A stretch of 64,000 nt of DNA, taken from the NCBI GenBank assembly GCA_963663765.2, contig CAXXUA010000004.1:320001-384000 (forward strand). Direction: 5' to 3'. Under the pieces are notes generated by a model. The model was not told where the DNA came from. It was given only the letters and a program-made list of their open reading frames with translations, and ran no database searches. The DNA is from Candidatus Poribacteria bacterium (GTDB lineage Bacteria > Poribacteria > WGA-4E > WGA-3G). Of the stretch, positions 8,223 to 58,580 are shown piece after piece. The translations under genes were made by a program, and so were the position numbers. The stretch's first letter is position 1. Each line of letters starts with the position of its first letter.

Positions 8223-10109
8223 CTAAGGAACATGCCACAGCATAAGAATACCGTCTGTACTAAGGCTTGCAAGTGTCTTGCCATCGGAAGTGAATGCCAC
8301 TTGATCCACCCGTTTGCGATGCCCTTTAAAAGTGTGCTGTACTGCACCGGTTTTCACGTCTAATATGTTGACTGTACCATCAAGGTACCCCGTCGCGAGT
8401 GTCTTACCATCCGGATCATAAGTCAGACTCATGACAAGATCTTTTTGTTTTTTGAATGGTGTATTTAGTGTGTTGGTGATAGTGTCAAAAAGATATATAG
8501 TTTCAGAATGGTCTGCAATGGCGAGTGTTTTTCCGTCTGGACTATAGCAAAAATCAGCGATTCTACCAAACTGTCCTTTTATGACACGTTTTGCTGTACC
8601 AGAGTCCGTACGCCATAAATGCACCGTCTTATCAGTACTGCCACTGGCTATGGTTTTACAATCGGGACTGAACACAACATTTGTGACTTTCTGCGTATGC
8701 TCTTCAAGTGTGTGCTTATTTTTCCCTGTTTTGGCATCCCACAGACGTACTGTCTTATCCCTACTGCCAGTTACGATCGTATTGCCATCCGAACTGTAGG
8801 CGACACACAGAACATCACTCTCATGTCCAATTAACGTCATTTTCATTTCACCCGTAACTCGATCCCACAGGTTGGTGTAATGTCCAGTGCTTGCGGTGGC
8901 TATAGTGTCCCCTCCCGGACTGAATGCAACAGCAGTGTCTAAGGTATGTGCTTCTCTATAAAGAACTTTCTGTAGGGTGCCGTTAGTTGTGTCCCAAAGA
9001 CAGACATGGATTTCTCTCGTCGGAGAGACAATTGACTCGCCGTCCGGACTAAATGCGAAGCAGGTAAAATTACCAAAGTAACCAGATTCAGTGTACTTGC
9101 TTTTACCGTTAACAACGTCCCAAATGCTGAGTGTACCATCGTAACTGCCACTAGCGATGGATCGCAAATCGGGACTGAAAGAGAGTGCTAGCACGTTATC
9201 GGTATGTCCCTCAAGCGTGTGCTTCAGTGCAGTTGTGTCTGTCTGATAGATGTTGATTGATCCTGTATAGTTACCTGTGGCAAAGTAATTACCTTCGGGA
9301 CTGAAAGCAATACAGTAAACTTTTGATCCCTTATTACCAATGCTGTGCAATTCTTTCCCCGTTTCAGTATTCCAGAGTCGGACTTTACCACCCCATCCCG
9401 CACTTACCAATGTTCCACCATCCGGACTGAACGTCATTTTGAGCGGTATCGCTTCATGTCCTTTTAAAGTTAGCTTCTGTCCACCTGTAAACATATCCCA
9501 CAAATTTACTTCGTTATTTTTATTCCCAGTTGCATATAGAAGATTTACCGAACTGAAGGCAGAGCCGAAAATGTCTCCCCCTGCGAACTTGTCTTTCTCT
9601 AACCGACTTTCATCCTGCTGTTTTTTGCCCGTAGCAGACTCCCAAAACGTTACTTTACCATCAAAGCTGATTGTCACAAGGGATTTAGAATCTGACGTGA
9701 AATCAAAATTTAGGATTTTGTCCTTGTGGTTAAGTCTATATTTATGTGCCCCTGATTGGCTGTTCCAAAGATGGATTACATTGTCCGAATCCAGACTCGC
9801 AAGTAGCTTCCCATCTGGACTGAATACAATGTTTCTGATGCGAAAACCGTGTTTTGTCAACACCCGAAGCGGTTTGCATGTGATCGCATCGTATATCCAA
9901 ACACCGTTATTTGTTGCGACCGCCAACTGCCTACCGTCTGAATTGTATTTCACATCGGAAATGAGTCCTTTCCCGATGTGTGCCTTTGCTCCTTTTGGTA
10001 AGACTAATGATGTGTTGGGTTCTTGTGCGATCAGGGAAGATAAAAAGACGATTGAATAGGTAAAGAAGAGTATGTAAATTAAGACCTTAATTGGGTATTT
10101 GGTTTGCAT
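8223..10109 (-). CDS. Secreted WD40-repeat protein
   Basis: Signal peptide and about 13 GH...FSPDG...WD repeats. GGAGG SD before ATG 10109. Confidence 0.9.
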   Translation of the reverse strand: MQTKYPIKVLIYILFFTYSIVFLSSLIAQEPNTSLVLPKGAKAHIGKGLISDVKYNSDGRQLAVATNNGVWIYDAITCKPLRVLTKHGFRIRNIVFSPDGKLLASLDSDNVIHLWNSQSGAHKYRLNHKDKILNFDFTSDSKSLVTISFDGKVTFWESATGKKQQDESRLEKDKFAGGDIFGSAFSSVNLLYATGNKNNEVNLWDMFTGGQKLTLKGHEAIPLKMTFSPDGGTLVSAGWGGKVRLWNTETGKELHSIGNKGSKVYCIAFSPEGNYFATGNYTGSINIYQTDTTALKHTLEGHTDNVLALSFSPDLRSIASGSYDGTLSIWDVVNGKSKYTESGYFGNFTCFAFSPDGESIVSPTREIHVCLWDTTNGTLQKVLYREAHTLDTAVAFSPGGDTIATASTGHYTNLWDRVTGEMKMTLIGHESDVLCVAYSSDGNTIVTGSRDKTVRLWDAKTGKNKHTLEEHTQKVTNVVFSPDCKTIASGSTDKTVHLWRTDSGTAKRVIKGQFGRIADFCYSPDGKTLAIADHSETIYLFDTITNTLNTPFKKQKDLVMSLTYDPDGKTLATGYLDGTVNILDVKTGAVQHTFKGHRKRVDQVAFTSDGKTLASLSTDGILMLWHVP

Positions 10110-10179
10110 GTTTATACCTCCTATGGGTTTACCTATAGTCAAAATATTATACTACAGTAAAGTAATTAAGTATTTCTTA

Positions 10180-10390
10180 CAGAACTTATACCGAATTAAC
10201 GTGAGTCGTCTTGCTAAGTGTGCGGTTAGGAAACCGCACCTACCGTTGGAAAAAGATAAATTACGTTAATTTGGTATTACGCAGTTTTCATGATTTGATG
10301 AAGAATTATGACGAAAATGGTGTAATTTTCAGCTTTTTTGGTTTCCAGCGCGCTTTCAAAGCGCGCCTACCGTTAGGTGCGTAAGTCCTG
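10180..10390. mobile_element. MITE family B with one 88-bp family A element (10189..10276) in its left TIR
   Basis: CAGAAC-TTA-[88 bp]-TTA-CGCAG...TGCGTAAGTCCTG. TSD TCTTA. Confidence 0.85.
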
Positions 10391-10418
10391 TCTTAATTTT
10401 CATAAAGTATGCATTCCG

Positions 10419-12287
10419 TTACCCTTTAACACCCATTGCTTCAAGTTGTGCTATCTGTTCTATCCATGATTCACGTATTTCATGTGAGTATTCAATTGGC
10501 AATAGGGATTTACGTGTACAATTCAGGAATGCTTGTAGCGTCTGATAACGTCGGATCGGACCGATATTGGGTAGGATTCTATCGGAGATAACGTCGATTA
10601 TCTCATTAACAGACAACTCACCTTCTCGGCTTTTGACTGCTTCAAGGTCAGCGCGTAGAGAAGCAAAACTTGCAGCTGAATATCCTTCAGTATGTGAAAG
10701 GATGTGTTTGAAATCTTCATCTGATATTTTACTGCCAAATACATTACTAATCGTCCAGCGTAAAAAGGTTTCTCGGTCATCTCCTGTAGGATCAAGGACA
10801 GGAATGACAATGTCACCGACTCTTCCCTCTCTTCGAAGATCCGGTGAAAGGTTATAGATACGAGCAGTCATCAGTAGCCATGTGATTTTTCCGCGTAATT
10901 GTGGGTCAGACATCATCGCTTGTATTTTTCCTGTAAGTCTACGTTCAGTCGCGTGTGCGTCCCTTCCTACCTCGCCGAACTGCGTATCCGCTTCATCTAC
11001 AAAAATCAGGACATTCACGAGTGCCATCAGCAAACGGCTAAGACGTTCAAATATTACATCTGTTTGTCCAAACCACATGCTGCGGATATTCTTAAGCACT
11101 AACACAGGGATATCAAGTTCTCCTGCTAACCCTTCAAAGATAAAAGTCTTGCCACTGCCGATAGGTCCACAAACACTTAATCCTGAGATTGAATCTTTGC
11201 CAGTTGATGTGATACGCGGAATGATTTGCGTTCTTAGGAATTCAACAAGTTTTGTGTTACCGATAATATCTTTCAGTGAATGTGCAGGTTTCTTGAACTC
11301 AACAACGTCCTCACCTAACTGTGCCTGTATAAACTCTGAGACCTTCTCTATAACATTATCCGGTTGAAGTTTTTCACCAGAATAACACGCGGAAACGAGT
11401 AGTTGCCGTAATGCTTGAATGGACAGACCAGCAGTTAACACCGCCAGCTGCGACTGACTACCCCAAAGATTTAATTCCTTATCTTTTGGTTTCTGAGTTC
11501 GGTTGAACCATGAGATAAAATGTCTGCGTGTATCGACTAATGGAGATTGTACCTCCACATCAACGACTTGCGGAAGTCGCATAATTCGTGAATTAATCAA
11601 ACTTTTTGATTCAGCTATGAAGACGACAGTGTCAGTAGCCTTCATGAAATCGGAATCTGATATCCAATCTTGAACAATACTGATTCTGTGCCTATCGGCT
11701 AAATTGAGACTTCTGATTTCACCTTCGGGCAGCAGCATGTCTGTGGCTTCAATGAGTATGAGGAGTTTTTCTTTTAAGAACTTTTTACCTTGAACATCAG
11801 AAGAACGAGAAATCATACAGAATTGACGAAGCAATTCCAATGCTAATGTTGGACTCCCGATAGCATCGTTGAGATATTGCTCAAACAATCTATCAGATGT
11901 ATCTGAGGAATTCGTTTTTTTGCTGGTGCTCAATCTTGGTTCTTTTGGAAGTGCATATAGACTGGAGATTTTTTTCTGTGAAGGGTCGGTGTTACCGCGC
12001 CATGAATTGAAAGCTTTATTGAGTTTATTCCTGTCTCTTTCATGCAGAATACGTAGGGGACCATTGAGTTCATATACTATAAGGATAAAACCGGGAATAT
12101 CCCAACTTTGTGTAAGAAATGGGACAAGGGGTATGTAATCCTCAACATTTTCTTCTTCAGCAAAAAAGAGGTCATGGATATTTCCATGAAGGACGATACT
12201 ACGTGATGTACCTGAGTTAATTAGCAAGCCAGCATCAGTTCTGAATTTGTAAGAAGGTTCCTTAATCGCGATCGGTTTTTCCTCCAT
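10419..12287 (-). CDS. Classical-clade AAA+ ATPase with degenerate N-terminal domain
   Basis: Walker A GPIGSGKT, pore loop SMWFGQT, Walker B LIFVDE, Arg finger LRREGR. Confidence 0.88.
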   Translation of the reverse strand: MEEKPIAIKEPSYKFRTDAGLLINSGTSRSIVLHGNIHDLFFAEEENVEDYIPLVPFLTQSWDIPGFILIVYELNGPLRILHERDRNKLNKAFNSWRGNTDPSQKKISSLYALPKEPRLSTSKKTNSSDTSDRLFEQYLNDAIGSPTLALELLRQFCMISRSSDVQGKKFLKEKLLILIEATDMLLPEGEIRSLNLADRHRISIVQDWISDSDFMKATDTVVFIAESKSLINSRIMRLPQVVDVEVQSPLVDTRRHFISWFNRTQKPKDKELNLWGSQSQLAVLTAGLSIQALRQLLVSACYSGEKLQPDNVIEKVSEFIQAQLGEDVVEFKKPAHSLKDIIGNTKLVEFLRTQIIPRITSTGKDSISGLSVCGPIGSGKTFIFEGLAGELDIPVLVLKNIRSMWFGQTDVIFERLSRLLMALVNVLIFVDEADTQFGEVGRDAHATERRLTGKIQAMMSDPQLRGKITWLLMTARIYNLSPDLRREGRVGDIVIPVLDPTGDDRETFLRWTISNVFGSKISDEDFKHILSHTEGYSAASFASLRADLEAVKSREGELSVNEIIDVISDRILPNIGPIRRYQTLQAFLNCTRKSLLPIEYSHEIRESWIEQIAQLEAMGVKG

Positions 12288-12299
12288 TTTCTGTAGACA

Positions 12300-14117
12300 T
12301 CAACCTGCTTGTGCTAACTTTTTCCATCTTGGGAGAAAACCTTCCGTTAAAAACATGTCAAGTTTCCAGATGTTACTTTGCGGTTCTTTTTCAAAAAATG
12401 TCCCCATTGCTAATACAAGGGCATCTTTGAAACCACACTTAGTTTTTACTTTTGACAAGGATTCATAAGTTTGGAGGAAAGCAGTATGAATCCGCAAAAA
12501 GTTTAAGGCAGCAAAACTAAAAGCGTTGAGTCGTAAACAATTATCTTCCGTTTTCTCCCAGTACCAATCCAGTTGATAAAAACGTTCAAGCCGTTCTTTA
12601 CAGATGTGTACTGCTTTTACAAGGAGATGATTTAAACCTTTATGTTCCTTTTCGCTATCAGGTATATCAAATTTCTCAAGAATCTCAGTGTGAATCCTAT
12701 GTTTAGCTTCATCAGAATCCACCCAAGTTTGAAATGCCTCGGACGCGCGTACGAAACAGTTTCTGAGATCCTCAAGCGTCAAATCAAGTTTGCTGGGAAA
12801 ATCTTTGAGCAACGAGGAACTTGGCATAAGATGTGCCTGTTCGGGGAATAATTGTAAGAATTTGTATTCAACAACATCCGCTAACATTTCCGCGAGAATG
12901 GGTGTAAATGCAATGATAGAACGTTCATATAACTCTGCATCAATAAACTCTGTTAGTTTTTCAGTATCAAGTTGAATTTCATCTGTATCAGTCTTTACAA
13001 AAGCATCAGCAAATGACAATTGTTCTCCTAAAACAGAAGCAGATTCGGAGAAAGATAAGGGGCGATCAAAGAGGGATAATTCGGTGTATAGATTCTCAAA
13101 ATCAAGTAGACTTTCCTGCCATTGATGACCCCATGTATCATGTATTAGGTATTTGTCAAGTTCCTCTAATGGAAGCACTCCGATCATTCGCGTGAGTGTT
13201 GTTGTTACAAGATCTAATGATAGACCGGTATCTTCAGCGATTTGCTTTCGTAAAGTGATGTCCAAATCTTCAGCATTAAATGTACCGAATACAGGGAAAT
13301 GAGCAAATGGTTCTACCTGCCAAATTTTTCGGAGAAACTGTGCATAACTTATTTTCTTTTTTGAACTTTGTTTCTCATTTTTGTCAACACTTGTATTTAA
13401 CTTTTGTTTTCTATCTTTGTCAGCGATACCTTCCTTAACCGCAGAAGGCAAACAGAAATAGAGAGCAGAACAGGTCTTTATTAACTTCACTTCACCAACA
13501 TCAAATGGTGCTCCTGGATACAGACATTGGAAGAAAGATAGAATATCATCATCCAGATTAGGATTGTCGGACACCAACTTATATCGTGTTTGTAGACTGT
13601 CCATAATCTGATGTCGATGTCTTAAGGGAGCAGTTCGTATAGAAAGTTTGTGTTTAAGTTTCTCTGCTGATTCTGGTGTAATTTGGAATATTTGTTGTAA
13701 TTGTGTCTTGATGTACTCACATTCGGAAATGTTTGATGGTGCATCTGGTGTAAAGAGTGTGAAGATTTTGGAACCAGCAGTATCAAGATTTTCTATGCTT
13801 GGGTGGTTGACGATTTCCGGATACTGTTCCAGTGATAACCATATTCCCTCAACAAAAGCTTCATCAATTATAGTCCTAATGGAATTAGTTGTTTCTGATT
13901 CTTTAGATGATTGTAATACTTTGTTAGTTTCATTTATCAGGGAATTATGGATTTCATAGAATAATTCAGGGGTTTCAATAGAAACAGGAGAGTTCTTTTT
14001 TTGTTTCTTGATTTGATGTACGTGGTTTTCAAAATCTTTCAATAGATTTAAGACGTTCTCCCAAGAAACGGGTGTTTTATCTTGATGCCACGTGTTAATT
14101 GTCATAATTGCTCCCAC
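12300..14117 (-). CDS. Hypothetical protein, possible M49 (DPP III)-like zincin
   Basis: 605-aa ORF with HDTWGH and a distal AEMLAD motif. Ends 12 bp before the AAA gene. Confidence 0.6.
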   Translation of the reverse strand: MGAIMTINTWHQDKTPVSWENVLNLLKDFENHVHQIKKQKKNSPVSIETPELFYEIHNSLINETNKVLQSSKESETTNSIRTIIDEAFVEGIWLSLEQYPEIVNHPSIENLDTAGSKIFTLFTPDAPSNISECEYIKTQLQQIFQITPESAEKLKHKLSIRTAPLRHRHQIMDSLQTRYKLVSDNPNLDDDILSFFQCLYPGAPFDVGEVKLIKTCSALYFCLPSAVKEGIADKDRKQKLNTSVDKNEKQSSKKKISYAQFLRKIWQVEPFAHFPVFGTFNAEDLDITLRKQIAEDTGLSLDLVTTTLTRMIGVLPLEELDKYLIHDTWGHQWQESLLDFENLYTELSLFDRPLSFSESASVLGEQLSFADAFVKTDTDEIQLDTEKLTEFIDAELYERSIIAFTPILAEMLADVVEYKFLQLFPEQAHLMPSSSLLKDFPSKLDLTLEDLRNCFVRASEAFQTWVDSDEAKHRIHTEILEKFDIPDSEKEHKGLNHLLVKAVHICKERLERFYQLDWYWEKTEDNCLRLNAFSFAALNFLRIHTAFLQTYESLSKVKTKCGFKDALVLAMGTFFEKEPQSNIWKLDMFLTEGFLPRWKKLAQAG

Positions 14118-14293
14118 AATATGTAAATAGTAATACCATTCTAAATATTATAGTCTCATTTTTGGATGTAATACCATTTCTAATGGACTCACATTGAGAT
14201 AAAAATACGGATGTCGTAGATAAGAGAAATGGAAGAATTTACTTATGTCCAAATTTTTCCATTTCATATATCTATAACTATTTTAATGTATTT

Positions 14294-14415
14294 CAGGACT
14301 TACGCAGTTTTCATGATTTAATCAAGAATTGTGTTGAAAATGATGTAATTTTCAACATTATTTGTGCTTCCAGCGCGCTTACAAAGCACGCCTACAGATC
14401 GGTGCGTAAGTCCTG
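14294..14415. mobile_element. MITE family B carrying one REP
   Basis: Perfect TIR CAGGACTTACGCA, TSD GTATTT. Confidence 0.85.
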
Positions 14416-14489
14416 GTATTTTTATTGTAGCAGAAACTCAAAAACCCCTTAGATACGATGGTATTCCAAAATATGATTATTGATCTATT

Positions 14490-15797
14490 TTATTGCTTTT
14501 CTAAACTTGCACAGATGAGTCTGTTGTCATTTCGAGCAAAGACGTGTCTGTAAGCAAACGCCGGATGTGCCCATGTAACGCCGCCTCTACGATTCAGTTG
14601 GTCGCGCGTCGGTTCAATCAATTTGGCTCGACTAATGATGTTAAGTCCTTTAGGTGAGAGTTTTGTGATGAGAAGTTCACCATGCTCATTGAACATCCAT
14701 ACTTTATCGCCATTTTTAACAAAGTGAATAGTGCTCCAACGCGCTTTTTTTACAGCGGTAAGATCCTCCCAAATCCGATCACCATTTTGAGCATCTATAC
14801 AACGAAGTTCACCATAACTGTCTACACCGTATATGTAATTACCAATACGAACAGGTGTAGACATCGTCGAATGGATTGCCTGTGTATTTTGTTCATCTTT
14901 ACCTCTACGATGCCAACCAAGTTCTACTGCCAACTTATCCTGCGCTAACTTCAGCATAAGTGAACCTTGAACGAAATGTGTCATAAATAATTCGTTTTGG
15001 TAGAAAACAGGTGTAGCAATTCGTGCACCGTTCCCTTCTTTTGGAAGTGAATAAAGCCAATGTACTGTCCCTGTTTGCGGATCAAGTGCTGCAATATTAT
15101 TCACTGTCCAGCAGATTAAGACCCGTTTTCCTGCTTGTGTAATGATAATCGGAGCTGAGTAAGAAGCGTCATCCTCAAGTGCTTTCCACTTTTCTTCACC
15201 TGTTTTCCTGTCAAACGCAACAATACATGCGTCCGGTTTACCACCAATTTGGAGAATCACGTGATCTCCTTCAACAATAGGCGCAGACGCGATCCCCCAG
15301 ATAGGCATTTCAATGTTATACTCAGTATTCAGGTCTTTTTGCCATACAATGTCCCCTATAGCAGCATCAAAACAGTGTAGCTGTCCCATTGCACCTAAAG
15401 CATAAGCAAGTCCATCGTGGACGGTGACACTCGCTCGTGGTCCCGCTGTATAATCAATTTTGTATAAACAATCGTAAGTATAAGACCAAATTTCGTCTCC
15501 TGTTTTCCAATCGAAGCAGTGAACACGTTCTACCTGTTTCGGTTTTGTGAGCCTGTCAGTCACGTACACCCGTCCATCAGCAACACTGGGACCACTATAA
15601 CCACTACTAATAGGAACACTCCAGCGGATAGGGATTTCTAAACCATCAAACTTTTCAATGGTACCTGTTTCCTTCCAAACACCGTCACGGTTTTCTCCAC
15701 GCCACTGGGGCCAATCATCTGCAATAGCAAATTGTATGTGAAGAGATAAAACAACAATAGAGATAATTAATATTGGTGAAAGTCGTTTGATAATGAT
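14490..15797 (-). CDS. PQQ-like (BamB-type) beta-propeller protein; start codon uncertain
   Basis: Frame extends upstream of the ORF call through a signal peptide and ADDWPQWRGENRDG. Trp-docking repeats. Confidence 0.8.
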   Translation of the reverse strand: MIIKRLSPILIISIVVLSLHIQFAIADDWPQWRGENRDGVWKETGTIEKFDGLEIPIRWSVPISSGYSGPSVADGRVYVTDRLTKPKQVERVHCFDWKTGDEIWSYTYDCLYKIDYTAGPRASVTVHDGLAYALGAMGQLHCFDAAIGDIVWQKDLNTEYNIEMPIWGIASAPIVEGDHVILQIGGKPDACIVAFDRKTGEEKWKALEDDASYSAPIIITQAGKRVLICWTVNNIAALDPQTGTVHWLYSLPKEGNGARIATPVFYQNELFMTHFVQGSLMLKLAQDKLAVELGWHRRGKDEQNTQAIHSTMSTPVRIGNYIYGVDSYGELRCIDAQNGDRIWEDLTAVKKARWSTIHFVKNGDKVWMFNEHGELLITKLSPKGLNIISRAKLIEPTRDQLNRRGGVTWAHPAFAYRHVFARNDNRLICASLEKQ

Positions 15798-15849
15798 TTC
15801 TATATTTCCTTCTTTTACGAATTCAGGTTATATTACCCTGGGTTGCTAC

Positions 15850-15992
15850 CTAATGAAGCTTGACAATCAAAATCGGTAGTTGAATAGGTAGGGGTTGGGT
15901 TCCCCAACCCACTTGGTTTTTGAGTTTGCGTAGATCGGGGGTGGAAACCACGCCCCTACGAATACTCAACTTGAACGTCAAAACTCATTAGG
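15850..15992. repeat. Inverted REP pair within imperfect inverted ends
   Basis: GTAGGGGTTGGGTTCCCCAACCC and GGGGGTGGAAACCACGCCCCTAC. Ends CCTAATGA...TCATTAGG. Confidence 0.55.
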
Positions 15993-16128
15993 ATTTTAGA
16001 CCTGCAAACACCGTTTTTAATAGAGCACAATACACTTTTTGTAACACAAACTGTCAGTTTGTGTGCTAAGATGCACAATCTAACAGATTATGTTACAAGG
16101 CAGCAACTTAGGTTAATATAGTAACAAT

Positions 16129-16965
16129 CTATAACGGTAATTCGGAATCGCTTTCAGTTTTTTCTGGTGTTTCTTCGCTTGTTTTCTCAGTATCAGATTG
16201 CTTTGCGCCGAATATAAGTGAATCAAATTCATCGGAAGCAGCGGAAGTACGAGCAGCAGCGAGGAATTCTTCCTCTTCAACACGTGTATCCGTACCAGCG
16301 AGTTCTTGTGCGACCTTTGAACGTCCTTTAGCTTTTTCTCGTATTTCGCGCATCCTCGTCAGTTCTGCTGCAGTACCATCCATACTAATACCTGAAAGCA
16401 TATCAGCGATCTCTTCCTGTTCTTTTGCTGTAATCATTTCAGCGACTGCATCAGATTGTTCGGTTTTGATTTTGTCCAGATCCCGTGACAATCCTTGTAT
16501 CTGAATCTTGTGTGTTTCTATATCTGATTGTGCAGTTTCAATGTCTTCTTCAAGTTCATCAATGCGAGCATTTTTTTCATCCAAAGTGGAGTGAAAATCG
16601 TTGAAAGAGGTAACGCACCGCACGTATTCTGGATGTTGTTTGATCTCATCTTCAGGTGTTCCTGCTTTAAGCAGATCGTCAGCTGTACTCTTTGCTTTGT
16701 TGATAGCACCTGTCTTCAACTTTTCTAAGCGATCAACATCATCTGTAAGCGTGTTTAGTGCTCCCTTTTTCTTTTCAACTGATGCCATGAGTTGAGCGAT
16801 GGCTGACTTATACCTTTGGATATTTCCCTGTTTGTCGCGTATTATGTCTTCATAAGCTCCGCGAATTGCATTTGGGTCCTCCATAAGTTTATCAGCCTGT
16901 TCGTGTGCTTTGCCAGTGAGTGTATGCCATATTGCTCTAAAAAAACGTGTAAAACCGTTTGCCAT
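16129..16965 (-). CDS. PspA/Vipp1 (ESCRT-III superfamily)-like coiled-coil protein
   Basis: Amphipathic N-helix MANGFTRFFRAIWHTL, EDP motif, long helical hairpin, RMREIREKAKGR helix, acidic tail. GAGGA SD. Confidence 0.75.
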   Translation of the reverse strand: MANGFTRFFRAIWHTLTGKAHEQADKLMEDPNAIRGAYEDIIRDKQGNIQRYKSAIAQLMASVEKKKGALNTLTDDVDRLEKLKTGAINKAKSTADDLLKAGTPEDEIKQHPEYVRCVTSFNDFHSTLDEKNARIDELEEDIETAQSDIETHKIQIQGLSRDLDKIKTEQSDAVAEMITAKEQEEIADMLSGISMDGTAAELTRMREIREKAKGRSKVAQELAGTDTRVEEEEFLAAARTSAASDEFDSLIFGAKQSDTEKTSEETPEKTESDSELPL

Positions 16966-17081
16966 TGTGGAATTCCTCCTAAATATAGTTAACTTTAAAA
17001 CCATTCCATAATAATAATCTGAAATCTACGAACTTGAAATGAGTTTCGATTTTTCAACTTTTGATCTGTTTTCTAATTTAT

Positions 17082-17203
17082 CAGGACTTACGCACCCAAC
17101 GGTAGGCGTGCTTTGTAAGCGCGCTGAAAACCGCAAATATGCTGAAAATTACACCATTTTCTTCATGATTCTTCATCAAATCATGAAAACTGCGTAAGTC
17201 CTG
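17082..17203. mobile_element. MITE family B carrying one REP
   Basis: Perfect TIR, TSD TTTAT. Confidence 0.88.
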
Positions 17204-17235
17204 TTTATATCTAAACGCATATCATCAACATTAAC

Positions 17236-17877
17236 TCATACGCGAACAGAATTAAGCTCATCAATAACATCAGATTGCTCAACCTTAGTCTTATCTAAAT
17301 CACGATGTAACTCTGATAATGCGTTTTTGTGAGATTCAATATCGGACTGTATATGTTCTATGTCCTGTTTAAGTTTCGCTACGCGGCAGTTTTTTTCCTC
17401 CAATGTTGTTTGAAAACTTTTAGATGAGGTAACGCTTTGAATGTATACTGGATGTTGTTCTGTCTCCTCATCCGATAGATCCACTTCTTGTAGTTTAGTT
17501 TTGATACTTTCAATCTTCTTGTCAGCACCTTCCTTTAACTGTTCAACTTGTTTGATCTCTTGAAATAAGCTTTTCAGTGAATTCTTTTTCATTTCAACGT
17601 GTGCCATGAGTTGCCCAATTACTTGCTTATAATTTTGGATATTCCTCTGCTTGTCTTGGATAATGTCTTCATAAGCTTCGCGCATCACTTCAAGATTGTC
17701 CTTGAGTGTGTCGTCCTGTTCTTGGTATTGACTATTCACTCTTATACTTTTTGTATCATCTTCAAGAGTTTCGTACAAAATTTCAGGAATTTCTTTGAGT
17801 TTTTCCGTTTGTTGAAGTGCACGACCAACTTGCGAATACCAGATTGCCTTGTATAAACGTGTAAAGCCATTATACAT
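17236..17877 (-). CDS. C-terminally shortened paralog of the PspA-like protein
   Basis: MYNGFTRLYKAIW, AYEDIIQDKQRNIQNYK, QHPVY and DLDKTKVEQSDVI all align with 16129..16965. Confidence 0.75.
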   Translation of the reverse strand: MYNGFTRLYKAIWYSQVGRALQQTEKLKEIPEILYETLEDDTKSIRVNSQYQEQDDTLKDNLEVMREAYEDIIQDKQRNIQNYKQVIGQLMAHVEMKKNSLKSLFQEIKQVEQLKEGADKKIESIKTKLQEVDLSDEETEQHPVYIQSVTSSKSFQTTLEEKNCRVAKLKQDIEHIQSDIESHKNALSELHRDLDKTKVEQSDVIDELNSVRV

Positions 17878-17951
17878 TGTTTCTACTCCAGAAATTTAGT
17901 TTTGTAAAAAATTTATACCTGAATATAGACAATAGAAAGTATATATAAGCA

Positions 17952-18740
17952 TCAAAGCAAATCACTTGCTTGGTTTATTTCCTTTTCAGGATCTGGTATA
18001 AATTCCCTTATCTGTTCATCAACCTTTTTTGCAAAATCGAGACTCTCATCCAGTTCAGTGCGTAGACGACCAAGTTCTGTCTCATTGCTGTCGGGACTGA
18101 TTGTTAGGACACGCGCATACAGATGCGAAAGCTGAACTATGGTCTGTTGAACATCCGCAATCTGTTGTTCTCTGTGTTGTCGCAGTACTCGTCTGACAGT
18201 TTCCAATTGAGAATCTCTTGATTTTTCTTGCATTTTCAGTGTGTCTTTTAGACACTGCACTGCTTGTGTAAACAGGTCAGTTACTTTATCAGTTATTTCC
18301 GCACTCACCAAAAGGGGTAGATTTGCCATCCAACTTGCTTCTCGAACTTCCTCTTGAAAGGACTTATGCAATGAACGAAGTTCATCCAACATCTGTTCTG
18401 TTCTTCTATCACCATCTCTTGTCAACTGTTGATGTAGCGTGTTTAGTTCTTCTTCCTGTTTTTGTTGTGCTTCGTGTAATATTTCTTCATGAACCTGTTT
18501 AGCAATATCCTCTGTACCAGTAGTCCACTTTGTAATCAAGGCACCGATGGGAATCCCAATACCGACGACAGCACTACCGAATAAGTAGAGAATCTGGGGT
18601 TCTAAGTTAAAAACCCATGACGCAAATACCCCCATTGCCCCCGCTGCAAATGGGTAAATGGTGTAAGGATTGCTAATAAGATGAAGTAAGTATTTCTTAC
18701 GAAACAAATTCCTATCAATCAATGTCTTCACCAAAAACAT
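17952..18740 (-). CDS. Membrane protein (two TM segments) with cytoplasmic helical/coiled-coil domain
   Basis: Two hydrophobic segments at about aa 25-70, then a helical Q/E-rich region. Confidence 0.75.
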   Translation of the reverse strand: MFLVKTLIDRNLFRKKYLLHLISNPYTIYPFAAGAMGVFASWVFNLEPQILYLFGSAVVGIGIPIGALITKWTTGTEDIAKQVHEEILHEAQQKQEEELNTLHQQLTRDGDRRTEQMLDELRSLHKSFQEEVREASWMANLPLLVSAEITDKVTDLFTQAVQCLKDTLKMQEKSRDSQLETVRRVLRQHREQQIADVQQTIVQLSHLYARVLTISPDSNETELGRLRTELDESLDFAKKVDEQIREFIPDPEKEINQASDLL

Positions 18741-18939
18741 GCACCCGTTTTAGCGTGCAAATTGTCATTAGGTTTAGTTTATTAGACTCTCTTTAAATAC
18801 AATCAGAATATAATCAATGACTATTTAACTTTCCGCTGATATTTTAACATATCATAGAGAAGTTGTAAAGAGAAATAGCACAACAATTTTTCAATATATT
18901 TCTCATAGCGTAAGTTATTCCTCTTGGTTTCTACCCAGG

Positions 18940-19096
18940 CAGGACTTACGCACCCAACGGTAGGCGTGCTTTGTAGGCGGGGAATGCCAAAAGGCATTCA
19001 TACCGTTGATTTGACGCCGGAAACCATAAAAATGCTGATAATTACATCGTTTTCGTCTTAATTCTTGATTGGAACATGAAAACTGCGTAAATCCTG
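18940..19096. mobile_element. MITE family B whose REP is interrupted by a 35-bp micro-element (18979..19013)
   Basis: TIR CAGGACTTACGCA/TGCGTAAATCCTG, TSD CCCAGG. Inserted at the end of a 53-bp family D element (19099..19151). Confidence 0.85.
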
Positions 19097-19213
19097 CCCA
19101 GGGTTATTCAGTTTTAAATTTACTGAATAAATTGAAAACTAAATAACCCTGCATGATATGACTTTTTGTAGCACAATTTGTTAGGTTGTGTTATTATATC
19201 ATTTCTAAATGAT

Positions 19214-19461
19214 CAATACCTTCGCCATTTTTGAGTGCTTCAGTTGAATGAGTATATAGTGTTGATCTACCATTGCTCTGTGATATTGTTAGGATTACAT
19301 AAATAAAAATAACTTCAGGTTTTCGTTGAAGTATTTTTAATTATCATAGCGTCTAATTTGACGATAGAATCTGACAGAATAATTTATATGCACAATCTGG
19401 AAGAATGTGCTACAACTGACCGCACAATCTGACAGAATGTATATTATTGGCGAAGGTATTG
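19214..19461. mobile_element. MITE family C, 248 bp
   Basis: TIR CAATACCTTCGCCA, TSD AATGAT. Confidence 0.9.
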
Positions 19462-20076: not shown

Positions 20077-20277
20077 TGTCTTATAGTGAACTTTGAAATT
20101 ATTGGGACACTTTGATAAACATATTTTGAAAACAGAACGGACAACAAAAGTTGTAGCACAAGCTTTTAGTTTGTGCATAATGAGAAGCAAACTAAAAGTT
20201 TGCGGTACAGAAATGTCCCATTAATTATAGGTTTTACTGTATTAATTCTTACTATTACTATAAATGGCGGAGGAAAT

Positions 20278-21822
20278 GTGACGTTTGACATTATAATAAC
20301 TGAGGGGAACATTGTTGATGGAACAGGGAAACGTGATCCTTATGTCGCAGATATTGGAATTCAAGCTGATACCATTGCAGCCATTGGTGACCTTAGCAAC
20401 GCAGAAACATCAGAACGAATTTACGCAAAAGATAAAATTGTTTGCCCTGGTTTTATTGATGTGCATGTTCATTCAGAAATCTCTCTACTCGGGGGTCGAG
20501 ATCAATATGCAGCTGTGATGCAGGGTGTAACGACCCATCTAACTGCGCCTGATGGATTCGGTTGGGCTCCTTTGTCTGAACAACATGCGCGCGAACTCTG
20601 GCACTACACACAATTTGCTTATGGTGATGATGAAGTTCCACTTGATTGGGAGACACATGAAGATTACCTAAGTATGTTTGAAGATCGCATTCCTGCAAAT
20701 CTATATCCGCAAGTTCCTCACTGTGCTGTTCGACTTGGTGCAATGGGATGGGATCATCGTCCTGCAACTACAGATGAACTAATCGCAATGGAGAAAACTA
20801 CACGTCAGTGGTTGGAAGCGGGAGCATGTTGCCTATGTTTAGGACTTGACTATCAACCATCAGCGAATGCAAATTTACATGAGTTGGTATATTTGTCAAA
20901 GGTTGCTGCAAGTTACGATGCGATCTATGCCGCACATATCAGATACCAACTGATTGGTAGAAAAAAGGCTTGGGAAGAAACTATTGAAATCGCACAACGT
21001 GCTGAGATCCCTGTTCATATTTCACATGAACGCGTTGACGATGAAGCAGCAGAAATACTTGAAAAGATAGATAGAGAAGACATTGATTTGACATTTGAAT
21101 CATATCTATATCCTGCAGGTATGACACACCTTGCGATGTTGTTGCCGATGGAATACCAAACAGGTGCACCCGATACGATGTTAGCAAAACTTGAGAATCC
21201 TGATGTCCGTGAGAAGTCACTTCCATATCTAAAACAGAAATTAGGTGAAGGGAACCAGATTGTAGGATATAACAAAAATGGTAGATATATCGGATTGACA
21301 CTGACTGAGGCAGCAAAAAAGGAAGGGAAATCTAACGAGGATTTTGCCTATGATTTCATTCTGGATGAAACCGCAATAGAAACCTTTGTAATGCCGTGGG
21401 ATACTTCTCCTGAAGAAAATGAACGGACTTTGAATCGCACAGCAAATCATCCTCGGATGATGATTGCAAGTGATGGCGTTTACAATATACCACATCCGCA
21501 TCCTCGTAGTTATGGGTGCTTTGTACAGTTCCTTGGCAAGTTTGTCAGGGAACGGAAGTTACTCCCGCTGAAAGATGCAATATATAAAATGAGTGGTTTT
21601 CCAGCAGAACGATTTCGTTTATCTGATCGTGGAAAAATAAAAGAAGGACTTGCTGCTGATATTGTTGTTTTCAATCCGGAGATTGTTGCTGATCGTTCAA
21701 CGTGGTTTGATCCTGTTCAACCACCTGTGGGTGTAAACTGGGTGATTGTTAATGGCGTTGCAGTCATCAAAGATGGCATGGTAACTAAACAACTTCCAGG
21801 AAAAGTTCTTCGGAAACAATAA
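20278..21822 (+). CDS. N-acyl-D-amino-acid deacylase family amidohydrolase
   Basis: PGFIDVHVH, ASDG, HPHPRSYG. GGAGG SD before GTG 20278. Confidence 0.9.
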   Translation: MTFDIIITEGNIVDGTGKRDPYVADIGIQADTIAAIGDLSNAETSERIYAKDKIVCPGFIDVHVHSEISLLGGRDQYAAVMQGVTTHLTAPDGFGWAPLSEQHARELWHYTQFAYGDDEVPLDWETHEDYLSMFEDRIPANLYPQVPHCAVRLGAMGWDHRPATTDELIAMEKTTRQWLEAGACCLCLGLDYQPSANANLHELVYLSKVAASYDAIYAAHIRYQLIGRKKAWEETIEIAQRAEIPVHISHERVDDEAAEILEKIDREDIDLTFESYLYPAGMTHLAMLLPMEYQTGAPDTMLAKLENPDVREKSLPYLKQKLGEGNQIVGYNKNGRYIGLTLTEAAKKEGKSNEDFAYDFILDETAIETFVMPWDTSPEENERTLNRTANHPRMMIASDGVYNIPHPHPRSYGCFVQFLGKFVRERKLLPLKDAIYKMSGFPAERFRLSDRGKIKEGLAADIVVFNPEIVADRSTWFDPVQPPVGVNWVIVNGVAVIKDGMVTKQLPGKVLRKQ

Positions 21823-21846
21823 AAGCAACAATAGGATGGTAGGACT

Positions 21847-23292
21847 GTGGAAAGGTATGACCTGACGATTATTGGTGGTGGTAGTGCAGGACTTGTTCTT
21901 GCAGTCGCTGGTGCAAAACTTGGTAAAAAGACTGCTCTTGTAGAGAAACATCGCATCGGTGGTGACTGTCTATGGACAGGATGTGTGCCTTCAAAAGCAC
22001 TACTGAAAACAGCGAAGGTATCAAACTACATTCGTAACGCAGAGAAATATGGTATTACAACAAATGAAACAAAACCTGACTGGCATAAGGTAATAGACTA
22101 TGTAAAAAGCACGCAACACATTATTCAAGAGGAACACGACAATCCTGAACGATTTCGGGATATGGGTGTTGATGTAATATTTGGAAACGGACATTTTGAG
22201 TCGCGTGATACTTTTGTCGTTGAGGATTCAGAGAAAAATCAAACACGCACACTAAAGAGTAAGCGATTTGTTATTTCCACTGGTTCTCGTCCGTTGGCTC
22301 CTGATATACCTGGATTGGATTCTTGTGATTTTCTTGACAGTGAAAATATATGGGATATTCAAGAATTACCACAACGGCTGCTTGTTGTTGGAGCTGGACC
22401 AATAGGTATTGAATTGGGACAAGCATTTCATCGGTTAGGTTCAAAAGTAACAATCTCACAACGTAGTGGACGCATTCTTACCAAAGAGGATACTGATGTT
22501 TCTGAACGGATGTTAGAATATCTTACCACAGAAGGCATTGATATCCGACTCAATACGAAAATTTCAAAAGTTGAACAACAAAATGATGGTATTAGAGTAA
22601 GGTTTGCAGATATAGAAAATGCCACATCCGAAGCAAATTGTGAACGAATCTATGATAAAATCCTTATCGCAGCAGGTAGAGCACCAAATGTTGAAGGTTT
22701 GGGACTTGACAAAATCGGTGTTAAAGTCCAAAAAAATGGGATTGTCGTCAATGGACAACTTCAGACACATGTGAAACACATTTATGCTGCAGGTGACGTT
22801 ATCGGACACTATCTATTTACACATGTGGCAGCATTTCAAGCACAGTTGCTTGTTCGTAATTTCTTATTGCCATTAGCAAAAAAGATCGATTATTCTGTTG
22901 TACCTTGGACGACATTTTGTGATCCTGAGGTTGCACGGTGCGGTTTGACTGAAGCGGAAGCACGCGAAAAATATGGTGATGTTGATGTGTTCTCATTAGA
23001 GCAGACAGATGTTGATAGAGCTGTTGCGGATGGAGAAACACACGGATTTACGAAAGTTATCGCATCAAAATGGCGTGGCAAAATATTAGGCGTTCATATA
23101 GTCGGGACAAATGCTGGTGAGATTATACACGAGTATGTTCTGGCGATGCAGGAGGGGATTCCGTTACGTAAATTGGGTGGAATGATGCACGTGTATCCGA
23201 CTTATTCAACAAGTGTATGGCGGGTAACAGCGAAATGGTTGTCAGAGGGAACACTGGTTAAGACTTTGCGGAGGTTTACAGGGACAGGATAA
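21847..23292 (+). CDS. Pyridine nucleotide-disulfide oxidoreductase (dihydrolipoamide dehydrogenase/MerA-like)
   Basis: GGGSAG, GGDCLWTGCVPSK, GAGPIG, HVYPT. No C-terminal Cys pair. Confidence 0.9.
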   Translation: MERYDLTIIGGGSAGLVLAVAGAKLGKKTALVEKHRIGGDCLWTGCVPSKALLKTAKVSNYIRNAEKYGITTNETKPDWHKVIDYVKSTQHIIQEEHDNPERFRDMGVDVIFGNGHFESRDTFVVEDSEKNQTRTLKSKRFVISTGSRPLAPDIPGLDSCDFLDSENIWDIQELPQRLLVVGAGPIGIELGQAFHRLGSKVTISQRSGRILTKEDTDVSERMLEYLTTEGIDIRLNTKISKVEQQNDGIRVRFADIENATSEANCERIYDKILIAAGRAPNVEGLGLDKIGVKVQKNGIVVNGQLQTHVKHIYAAGDVIGHYLFTHVAAFQAQLLVRNFLLPLAKKIDYSVVPWTTFCDPEVARCGLTEAEAREKYGDVDVFSLEQTDVDRAVADGETHGFTKVIASKWRGKILGVHIVGTNAGEIIHEYVLAMQEGIPLRKLGGMMHVYPTYSTSVWRVTAKWLSEGTLVKTLRRFTGTG

Positions 23293-45723: not shown

Positions 45724-45846
45724 CAGGACTTACGCAATTTTCTTGATTTAATCAAGAATTATGTTGAAAATGATGTAATTAATCAGTGTTTTTATAGGGT
45801 GCCAGCGCGCTTACAAAGCACGCCTACCGTTTTTGCGTAAGTTCTG
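45724..45846. mobile_element. MITE family B carrying one REP
   Basis: TIR CAGGACTTACGCA/TGCGTAAGTTCTG, TSD TATTG. Confidence 0.85.
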
Positions 45847-58421: not shown

Positions 58422-58580
58422 CAGGACTTACGCAGTTTTCTTGATTTAATCAAAAATTATGATGAAAATGATGCCATTATCAGCGTTTTTATGGGTTTCC
58501 GGCGCGCTTACAAAGCACCAAATCAACGGTATGAATGCCATTTAGGCATTCCCCGCCTACCGTTGTGTGCGTAAGTCTTG
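58422..58580. mobile_element. MITE family B whose REP is interrupted by a 36-bp micro-element (58519..58554)
   Basis: TIR CAGGACTTACGCA/TGCGTAAGTCTTG, TSD TTGAA. Confidence 0.85.

Follow-up and report, generated by a model that had tools for sequence, protein, structure and literature searches.

Gene content of the locus

This study concerns a gene cluster for PspA-like proteins and a AAA ATPase in the genome of a poribacterium (Candidatus Poribacteria bacterium, assembly GCA_963663765.2). The cluster lies in a stretch of 64,000 nucleotides (nt), positions 320,001 to 384,000 of contig CAXXUA010000004.1 (here C4). This whole stretch was analysed and is called the window; coordinates without a contig or locus label refer to it. 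Open reading frame (ORF) calling found six co-oriented ORFs on the minus strand at 10419-18740, all of which had been described in the original prediction, made from the sequence alone. The first gene of the operon is TM262 (17952-18740, 262 amino acids, aa). It is followed by PspA213 (17236-17877, 213 aa), a short, tail-less PspA paralog, and by PspA291, a 291-aa ORF at 16129-17004 with a probable coding sequence at 16129-16965 and a probable start at Met14. Then come a gene for a PQQ/BamB-like beta-propeller (14490-15569, 359 aa, frame open upstream to about 15815), unk605 (12300-14117, 605 aa), which belongs to an orphan family, and AAA622 (10419-12287, 622 aa), a predicted tandem AAA ATPase. 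The genes of the locus are a real, conserved operon, and its source is a sponge symbiont. The conserved order is TM262, one to four PspA paralogs, unk605 and the AAA ATPase.

The propeller gene is a local, lineage-specific insertion and not part of the system. Its product matches PF13360 (PQQ_2; E 6.9e-29). The gene was absent from the cluster in all loci compared, namely 15 from relatives and 65 from poribacterial genomes with named records. A 74% paralog is found in the same genome (G000, C4:306274-307347), some 13 kb away from the window. Hence it had to be removed from the proposed gene set. The protein had also been called secreted. A signal-peptide-like stretch is indeed present in frame upstream (14490-15815, minus strand), but this stretch contains no ATG, GTG or TTG. 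The gene may begin at a rare start codon, or its start may have been lost.

The miniature inverted-repeat transposable elements (MITEs) of the locus are later insertions as well. The element is about 125 nt long, has the terminal inverted repeats CAGGACTTACGCA and occurs in about 173 near-full copies (at least 100 nt) in the genome. One copy lies between unk605 and the propeller gene (14294-14418), one between the two PspA genes (17079-17203), one just downstream of AAA622 (10277-10393) and one, in two matching pieces, upstream of TM262 (18937-19096). DNA contigs of a related strain run from 14287 directly to 14416 and from 17076 directly to 17204, and thus represent empty sites at exactly both internal MITE positions. 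Because these contigs skip exactly these copies, both internal MITEs are recent insertions. The genes were said to be separated mostly by MITEs; this applies to two of the five internal gaps and to both outer flanks, but not to the other three internal gaps.

The AAA ATPase

The C-terminal part of AAA622 carries the classical AAA domain that had been predicted (PF00004, residues 372-492), together with a sub-threshold match to AAA_22 (Pfam, E<=0.1). It contains a single P-loop (Walker A) at residue 374, the Walker B motif IFVDEAD and an arginine-rich second region. Downstream of Walker A lies the sequence SMWFGQT (residues 403-409), which has the aromatic-hydrophobic-Gly pattern of pore loop 1 and, we assume, resembles the D2 loop of p97. 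The classical AAA module comprises residues 346-622, and residues 1-345 are without a P-loop. When the two halves were aligned, residues 173-326 of the N-terminal half matched positions 79-232 of the C-terminal half (hhalign E 4.2e-4, probability 34%), spanning the Walker B and lid regions. AAA622 thus appears, with moderate confidence and judging from its sequence, to be a tandem AAA protein with a degenerate N-terminal module and a predicted active, classical C-terminal module.

The closest solved relatives (phmmer against the PDB) were Cdc48, VAT, p97 and AFG2 with E values from 4e-20 to 1e-15, followed by katanin (3e-9) and Vps4 (6e-8). The scores with NCBIfam models were 36.5 bits for CDC48, 28.7 for Pan2 and 25.9 for CdvC. 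Neither MIT nor Vps4_C was matched in AAA622 (Pfam, E<=0.1). The assignment to the Vps4 type therefore fails on three counts: these two domains are missing, the scores favour Cdc48/VAT/p97, and an N-terminal degenerate AAA module is present instead. AAA622 may work like Vps4; by the features tested it is not a member of the Vps4 family.

A distant paralog of AAA622 is encoded outside the window at C6:303493-305346 (minus strand). It has 617 aa, is 21% identical over the full length, contains no GxxxxGK[ST] P-loop at all and has no PspA neighbour.

PspA-like proteins and their acidic tail

PspA291 was matched by the Pfam family PspA_IM30 (PF04012) with 35.2 bits (35.4 when counted from Met14), which is above the curated cut-off of 33.9 bits. 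The match covers profile positions 3-205 of 220, and 17 of 25 aligned members of the PspA291 family match the same profile (E<=0.01). This agrees with its description as a full-length PspA-like protein. PspA213 had no Pfam match of its own at E<=0.1. It is, however, a paralog of PspA291 (88 of 208 residues identical, i. e. 42%; BLASTP E 6e-55), so that the short PspA-like gene of the original prediction is confirmed too. In PspA213, 31 residues are inserted behind the N-terminal helix, and the C-terminal third is missing.

Orthologs of PspA291 begin with MANGF, which corresponds to Met14 of the ORF. The N-terminal 18-mer of PspA291 has a net charge of +3 and a hydrophobic moment of 0.50, which 68 of 2000 shuffled sequences reached. 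For the N-terminal helix of PspA213 the moment was 0.19, which 1300 of 2000 shuffles reached. Amphipathic N-terminal helices had been expected in both proteins; by this measure the helix of PspA291 is amphipathic and that of PspA213 is not.

The number of PspA genes varies between one and four across the 26 loci with the full arrangement (called fused below). Only the PspA that adjoins unk605 or the AAA gene keeps an acidic C-terminal tail, and the upstream paralogs are without it. In these PspA291 orthologs the tail is strongly conserved, with the elements ELAGTD, EEEFL.AA and DEFDSLIFGA and a terminal DSELPL. PspA proteins from operons of the same type in Planctomycetota have the tail ELAGTD, EAEFL.YA, SEFDxLIGL and a terminal LPE. 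Thus ELAGTD, EEFL, EFDxLIG and a terminal LP(L/E) are common to Poribacteria and Planctomycetota. A tail that is conserved to its last residue in two phyla looks as a recognition or threading signal would be expected to look; that the AAA protein reads it is what we infer.

Three further PspA-domain genes were found in the genome, all outside the window. Two of them form a tandem at C5:809822-812210; their products (372 and 406 aa) are extended at the N-terminus by hydrophobic stretches and score 77 bits to PF04012. The third, at C4:802562-803275, encodes a protein of 237 aa and lies just upstream of genes for an ABC ATPase and a 546-aa membrane protein.

TM262 and unk605

TM262 was kept in 22 poribacterial loci and has homologs in operons of Planctomycetota. 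No Pfam family matched it, also not across the 22 aligned members. Its helical domain has the conserved motifs DGDxRTE and LRxELD. The AF2 model is all-helical and of low confidence (pLDDT 58.5), with helices at residues 25-43 and 49-74. Of the two transmembrane segments that had been proposed, one (49-71) passes the Kyte-Doolittle threshold of 1.6, whereas the other appears as a helix in the low-confidence model. The model is consistent with an N-terminal membrane hairpin (about residues 25-74) followed by a putative cytoplasmic helical domain of about 190 aa. One automatic Atlas entry links TM262-like clusters to Rv2743c (score 0.87, carried by 12% of the cluster members), which we treat as a lead only.

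The family of unk605 is a real one, with 201 representative clusters at E<=0.001 in a set of 1.84 billion proteins; in species genomes it has 232 loci. Eighty of these loci were kept, namely the 65 poribacterial ones and 15 others, 13 of which are planctomycete. The invariant residues are HDxWGHxWQ (326-334), E410/D414/E417, S434/S435 and K443/D445/D450, and HDxWGH was present in 48 of 52 family members. The predicted fold is mostly helical and of high confidence (pLDDT 91.7, pTM 0.92). It had no credible match among solved structures (Foldseek against the PDB, VIA-align in a wide search and a second look) and no usable match in the ESM Atlas, and profile searches against PDB and Pfam were empty.

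The protein had been labelled zincin-like, which our results do not support. HExxH was absent in all 52 family members, HxxEH and HExxxH were absent in unk605 itself, and the fold searches gave no match to a zincin. In the model, the invariant His/Asp and Glu/Asp residues sit in helices 317-337 and 385-423. This suggests, as a guess, that they could bind a metal. HDTWGH together with E410/D414/E417 presumably resembles the HExxGH/EExxAE arrangement of DPP III-like enzymes, a likeness that no tool supports and that we keep as a lead only.

No longer fused forms of unk605 were found among proteins of 1060-3025 aa. Among seven longer family members (619-736 aa) one had a sub-threshold TerB match and the others nothing else. 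Co-folding of unk605 with the cytoplasmic domain of TM262 (residues 75-262) gave an ipSAE of 0.00 in both of two runs, a value that weighs neither for nor against binding.

Conservation in Poribacteria

TM262 and unk605 were present in all 15 loci from relatives, and in 14 of them a PspA gene and the AAA gene were present too. Among the 65 poribacterial loci, 26 have the full fused arrangement and five more are fused loci cut upstream by a contig end. In 30 loci the arrangement is split: TM262 is directly followed by unk605 (median gap about 18 nt), and neither PspA nor AAA genes are found within at least 2.5 kb downstream. Three loci are probably split and one is uninformative. In the split type, an ortholog of AAA622 (71-75% identity) is encoded elsewhere, directly beside an ortholog of PspA291, in all five complete genomes. 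The co-occurrence of AAA and PspA genes that had been expected thus extends over the 26 full and five partial fused loci, the five split genomes and Planctomycetota.

A quick maximum-likelihood tree of unk605 (65 rows, rooted on five Planctomycetota rows) was calculated, from which five poribacterial loci were left out (unk605 fragment, split or unclassifiable). In this tree the split type forms one nested clade (29 rows, SH-aLRT 99) and fused-type lineages branch earlier. Given this nesting, Poribacteria probably had the fused form first, and the split probably happened once.

In genomes of the same genus, the ortholog of AAA622 was found in 24 of 24 and unk605 in 18 of 24. Of the loci of this genus without unk605, four were compared, one of them in a single-contig genome. 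In all four PspA lies directly beside the AAA gene, and TM262 is missing as well. Three of them hold a second PspA gene and adjoin amidohydrolase and Pyr_redox genes, as is the case at 20173-23292 of the window. Two of these three have in addition a gene for a membrane protein of 181-194 aa without Pfam family between the two PspA genes (L163:9683-10228 and L165:8785-9369). Possibly, this protein is an alternative membrane partner where TM262 and unk605 are missing.

Profiles of TM262 and unk605 found no match in any of five same-genus genomes that keep the PspA-AAA pair (the sixth genome without unk605, G013, was left out). The two genes are thus jointly absent, and they travel together in the split clade although they are not adjacent in the fused form. 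This argues that TM262 and unk605 behave as a unit and work as a pair. The predicted co-occurrence of unk605 with PspA and AAA genes holds for the fused poribacterial loci but not outside Poribacteria, and within Poribacteria unk605 tracks TM262 and not the PspA-AAA pair.

Occurrence in Planctomycetota

In Planctomycetota the operon is longer. It consists of genes for a VWA protein, an OmpA-domain protein, TM262, PspA, a protein of 351-359 aa, an ABC permease, an ABC ATPase and the tandem AAA protein. The poribacterial genus g3 has the same long order, without unk605. The lineage of the window no longer has the VWA, OmpA and ABC transporter genes, and the place between PspA and AAA is taken by unk605. 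The gene has this place in lineages down to 40% identity, often with a gap of 4-30 nt to the AAA gene.

Relatives of unk605 in Planctomycetota have no PspA, AAA or TM262 neighbours. Five Planctomycetota genomes with such a relative were analysed, and four of them encode strong homologs of TM262 (E 1e-31 to 5e-40). These homologs sit away from unk605, in operons of VWA, OmpA, TM262, a protein of 354-356 aa and ABC permease genes. In one of the genomes a weaker TM262-like gene heads a triad with PspA and AAA. Among 151 evenly sampled Planctomycetota genomes, the TM262 profile was found in five, the N-terminal half of AAA622 in 18 at E<=1e-5 and in seven at E<=1e-66, and the unk605 profile in three. 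All five genomes with TM262 are among the seven with strong AAA622 matches, at a distance of at most about 6 kb between the two genes.

Regulatory genes and transcription

In the genome, which is 97.8% complete, no match to PspB or PspC (PF06667, PF04024) was found anywhere. The profile of sigma-54 activators (PF00158) had ten matches in the genome and none of them in the window (C4:320001-384000). These results bear out the earlier statement that pspBC and pspF are not present here.

The best sigma-70-like match of the region lies about 100 nt upstream of TM262 (18841-18869, minus strand; 10 of 12 positions and an extended TG) and is a candidate for the operon promoter. In the promoter and terminator scan of the region, sites were no commoner than in shuffled sequences (30 sigma-70-like sites versus 27.6). 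Contigs of 151-245 nt from an RNA library cover parts of TM262, both PspA genes, the propeller gene and the junction of unk605 and AAA622; the contig at this junction has just 30 letters on the AAA side and was not counted as bridging. The two runs of RNA reads, deposited under separate studies, agree in all contigs, depths and differences and are apparently one data set filed twice. Stretches not covered by RNA contigs were given no evidential weight.

Interpretation

On balance, we think that the locus is probably a poribacterial variant of a PspA-plus-tandem-AAA membrane system that works in the following way. The PspA subunits, i. e. the full-length protein and the tail-less paralogs, would polymerise on the inner membrane, where membrane-anchored TM262 would position them. 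A hexamer of AAA622 would engage the exposed C-terminal tail of the full-length PspA and thread subunits through its pore, whereby the polymer is disassembled or remodelled. The motor would then act as Vps4 does on ESCRT-III, though it is Cdc48-like in ancestry. As for unk605, it would have taken the ancestral operon slot of the ABC transporter while staying with TM262. Most likely it would act jointly with TM262 at the membrane, where it could be a metal-binding enzyme or sensor. The original prediction saw here a PspA system of a non-canonical type, in which a helical partner is anchored in the membrane and a classical AAA ATPase is dedicated to PspA; this is in agreement with the co-occurrence of AAA and PspA across loci. 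The prediction was right in outline; it was wrong on the propeller gene and the Vps4 membership, and its zincin label finds no support.

Several points weigh against this picture. Solved chains of PspA and Vipp1 match PspA291 weakly (phmmer E 0.0028-0.0079, profile E 0.011-0.076), and the ESCRT-III fold is ascribed to the PspA-like proteins by family membership only. No relation of TM262 to either PspA or Snf7 could be detected (hhalign probability 0.3%, no Pfam match in 22 members), and in the fold search its low-confidence model found generic helical bundles only. The similarity between the two halves of AAA622, at the hhalign probability given above, is modest. The five genomes without TM262 and unk605 are kin, so that their joint absence may go back to a single loss. 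In Planctomycetota, TM262 (five genomes) and unk605 (three) overlap in just one of the 151 genomes, and the unk605 relatives are on their own there, beside genes of many kinds (dockerin, BBP7 porin, metallophosphatase, M1 peptidase, PhoD) that show no theme. Transcription is supported only by short contigs of apparently one library, with possible DNA carry-over. Full-text searches brought up no experimental work on a classical AAA ATPase linked to PspA.

Comparative genomics has already described neighbourhoods of PspA with an 'inactive-Classical-AAA+Classical-AAA' protein (Ravi et al., mSystems 2024, PMC11237479). To judge from the sections of that paper used here, these are of the same type as our locus, so that the earlier remark on known PspA-AAA neighbourhoods was correct. 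Our comparison with the proteins of Ravi et al. (e. g. AEY64320.1) is based on their architecture strings and text only. At this level, PspA lies in both systems next to a AAA protein of two modules, the N-terminal one without a P-loop, and both have a membrane-anchored helical protein. Ravi et al. also describe a long form with a membrane-anchored 'divergent Snf7' protein and ABC/PBPB-OmpA genes (PMC11237479). The counterpart of this long form, with its VWA, OmpA and ABC genes, is found here in Planctomycetota and genus g3. Unlike the system in those sections, the lineage of the window is without ABC, OmpA and VWA genes, has unk605 between PspA and AAA, and has tail-less PspA paralogs. For TM262, a likeness to Snf7 as in their 'SIG+TM+Snf7' protein could not be confirmed. 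The general pairing of PspA with AAA is thus already known (PMC11237479, in the sections referred to), and in this respect our analysis is a refinement and not a discovery. New are the replacement of the slot by unk605, the TM262-unk605 unit, the conservation of the tail in two phyla and the fold result for unk605.

With the ESCRT-III/Vps4 (CdvB/CdvC) systems of archaea and eukaryotes the locus shares a polymer-former that belongs to the ESCRT-III superfamily by family membership, an acidic C-terminal tail, paralogous subunits and an adjacent AAA ATPase of the classical clade with an aromatic pore loop. Unlike Vps4, AAA622 is without MIT and Vps4_C, has a degenerate extra AAA module in the place of MIT, and its scores favour Cdc48. 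The likeness is one of function, an analogy and not orthology. With the canonical Psp and Lia systems (PspFABC of E. coli, LiaIH of B. subtilis and ClgR-PspA-PspM-PspN of Mycobacterium) it shares a PspA/IM30 protein and a small integral-membrane partner. It differs from them in that PspB and PspC were not found in the genome and no sigma-54 activator in the window, and in that its ATPase is of the classical AAA unfoldase type and not a transcription factor of the bacterial enhancer-binding protein type.

The part of the picture that concerns unk605 can also be read in another way, which is compatible with either view of the motor. unk605 could be a long-standing neighbour with a separate function, inserted by chance and kept by operon inertia. 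The Planctomycetota relatives without PspA, AAA and TM262 neighbours speak for this, as do the weak phyletic overlap of unk605 with TM262 in that phylum and the persistence of the PspA-AAA pair without unk605 in same-genus genomes and genus g3. However, unk605 occupies the slot between PspA and AAA across lineages as distant as 40% identity, its gap to the AAA gene is often only 4-30 nt, and in most of the 30 split loci it lies about 18 nt from TM262. Moreover, unk605 and TM262 went unfound in the same five genomes, though they are non-adjacent in the fused form. On this evidence we regard a mere neighbour as fairly unlikely, if worth keeping in mind. Distinctly doubtful, on the other hand, is the most specific proposal for unk605, namely that it is a new family of metal-binding enzymes or sensors with a fold unseen among solved structures, which docks on TM262 and functionally replaces the ABC transporter module. 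Were this true, turnover of an ESCRT-III-like polymer would be coupled to a chemical change at the membrane, for example lipid or head-group processing, and TM262-unk605 would be a separable module able to work apart from the PspA-AAA pair.

A different role is conceivable for PspA itself. It could be a regulator or adaptor of the AAA protein and not its substrate. Damaged membrane proteins would then be the substrates, which the motor would pull out or unfold as Cdc48, Msp1 or FtsH do, with TM262 as the tether and PspA as a gate under stress. The AAA622 module is indeed nearest to the Cdc48/VAT/p97 unfoldases and not to Vps4, and it has no recognition domain of the MIT type. There is also a precedent, as PspA of E. 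coli restrains the AAA+ protein PspF according to a section of a 2025 review (PMC7619361). Yet the tail of the AAA-linked PspA, which was kept up to the very C-terminus in two phyla, is at least as compatible with a substrate that is threaded or recognised, and the AAA gene adjoins PspA even where all else has split off. We therefore consider this role of PspA unlikely. An anti-phage defence or toxin-like module of a coiled-coil sensor and a AAA effector is highly improbable, since the PADLOC matches were weak and generic (coiled-coil regions of LmuB and JetC with E 2e-5 to 1e-3, the AAA of IetA with 1.7e-4) with no specific defence family among them, Pfam showed neither a nuclease nor any other effector domain, and the gene set is vertically conserved at one chromosomal position in the genus and in two phyla as a PspA operon.

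If disassembly of PspA polymers by the AAA motor is what the operon achieves, it bears on an acknowledged gap. In the section used here, the 2025 review of bacterial ESCRT-III-like systems says of a Vps4-like ATPase that it "appears absent in bacteria", and that other explanations are needed for the control of PspA polymerisation (PMC7619361). A classical AAA unfoldase of the PspA operons' own would be a direct and testable answer to the question of how PspA polymers are recycled in bacteria. The poribacterial form is compact, with four protein types and no transporter, and has a defined candidate recognition tail, which makes it convenient for reconstitution. For unk605, a conserved family with a confidently predicted fold, the unit behaviour with TM262 provides a concrete first hypothesis.

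Neighbouring genes and repeats

Directly downstream of AAA622 lies a gene for a 639-aa WD40 protein (8223-10142, minus strand) with a periodicity of 126 nt (42 aa). In genomes of the split type, too, the PspA-AAA pair has WD40-like genes beside it, for proteins of 666-689 aa that were judged by their N-terminal sequences only.

Further MITE copies in the window are located at 45724-45846 and 58422-58518. A second family of short intergenic repeats (TTGTAGCACAA..., ATGCACAATCT...) occurs around the operon at 16039-16098, 19166-19190, 19388-19415 and 20151-20175. It partly forms inverted pairs, such as 19387-19417 with 20149-20179.

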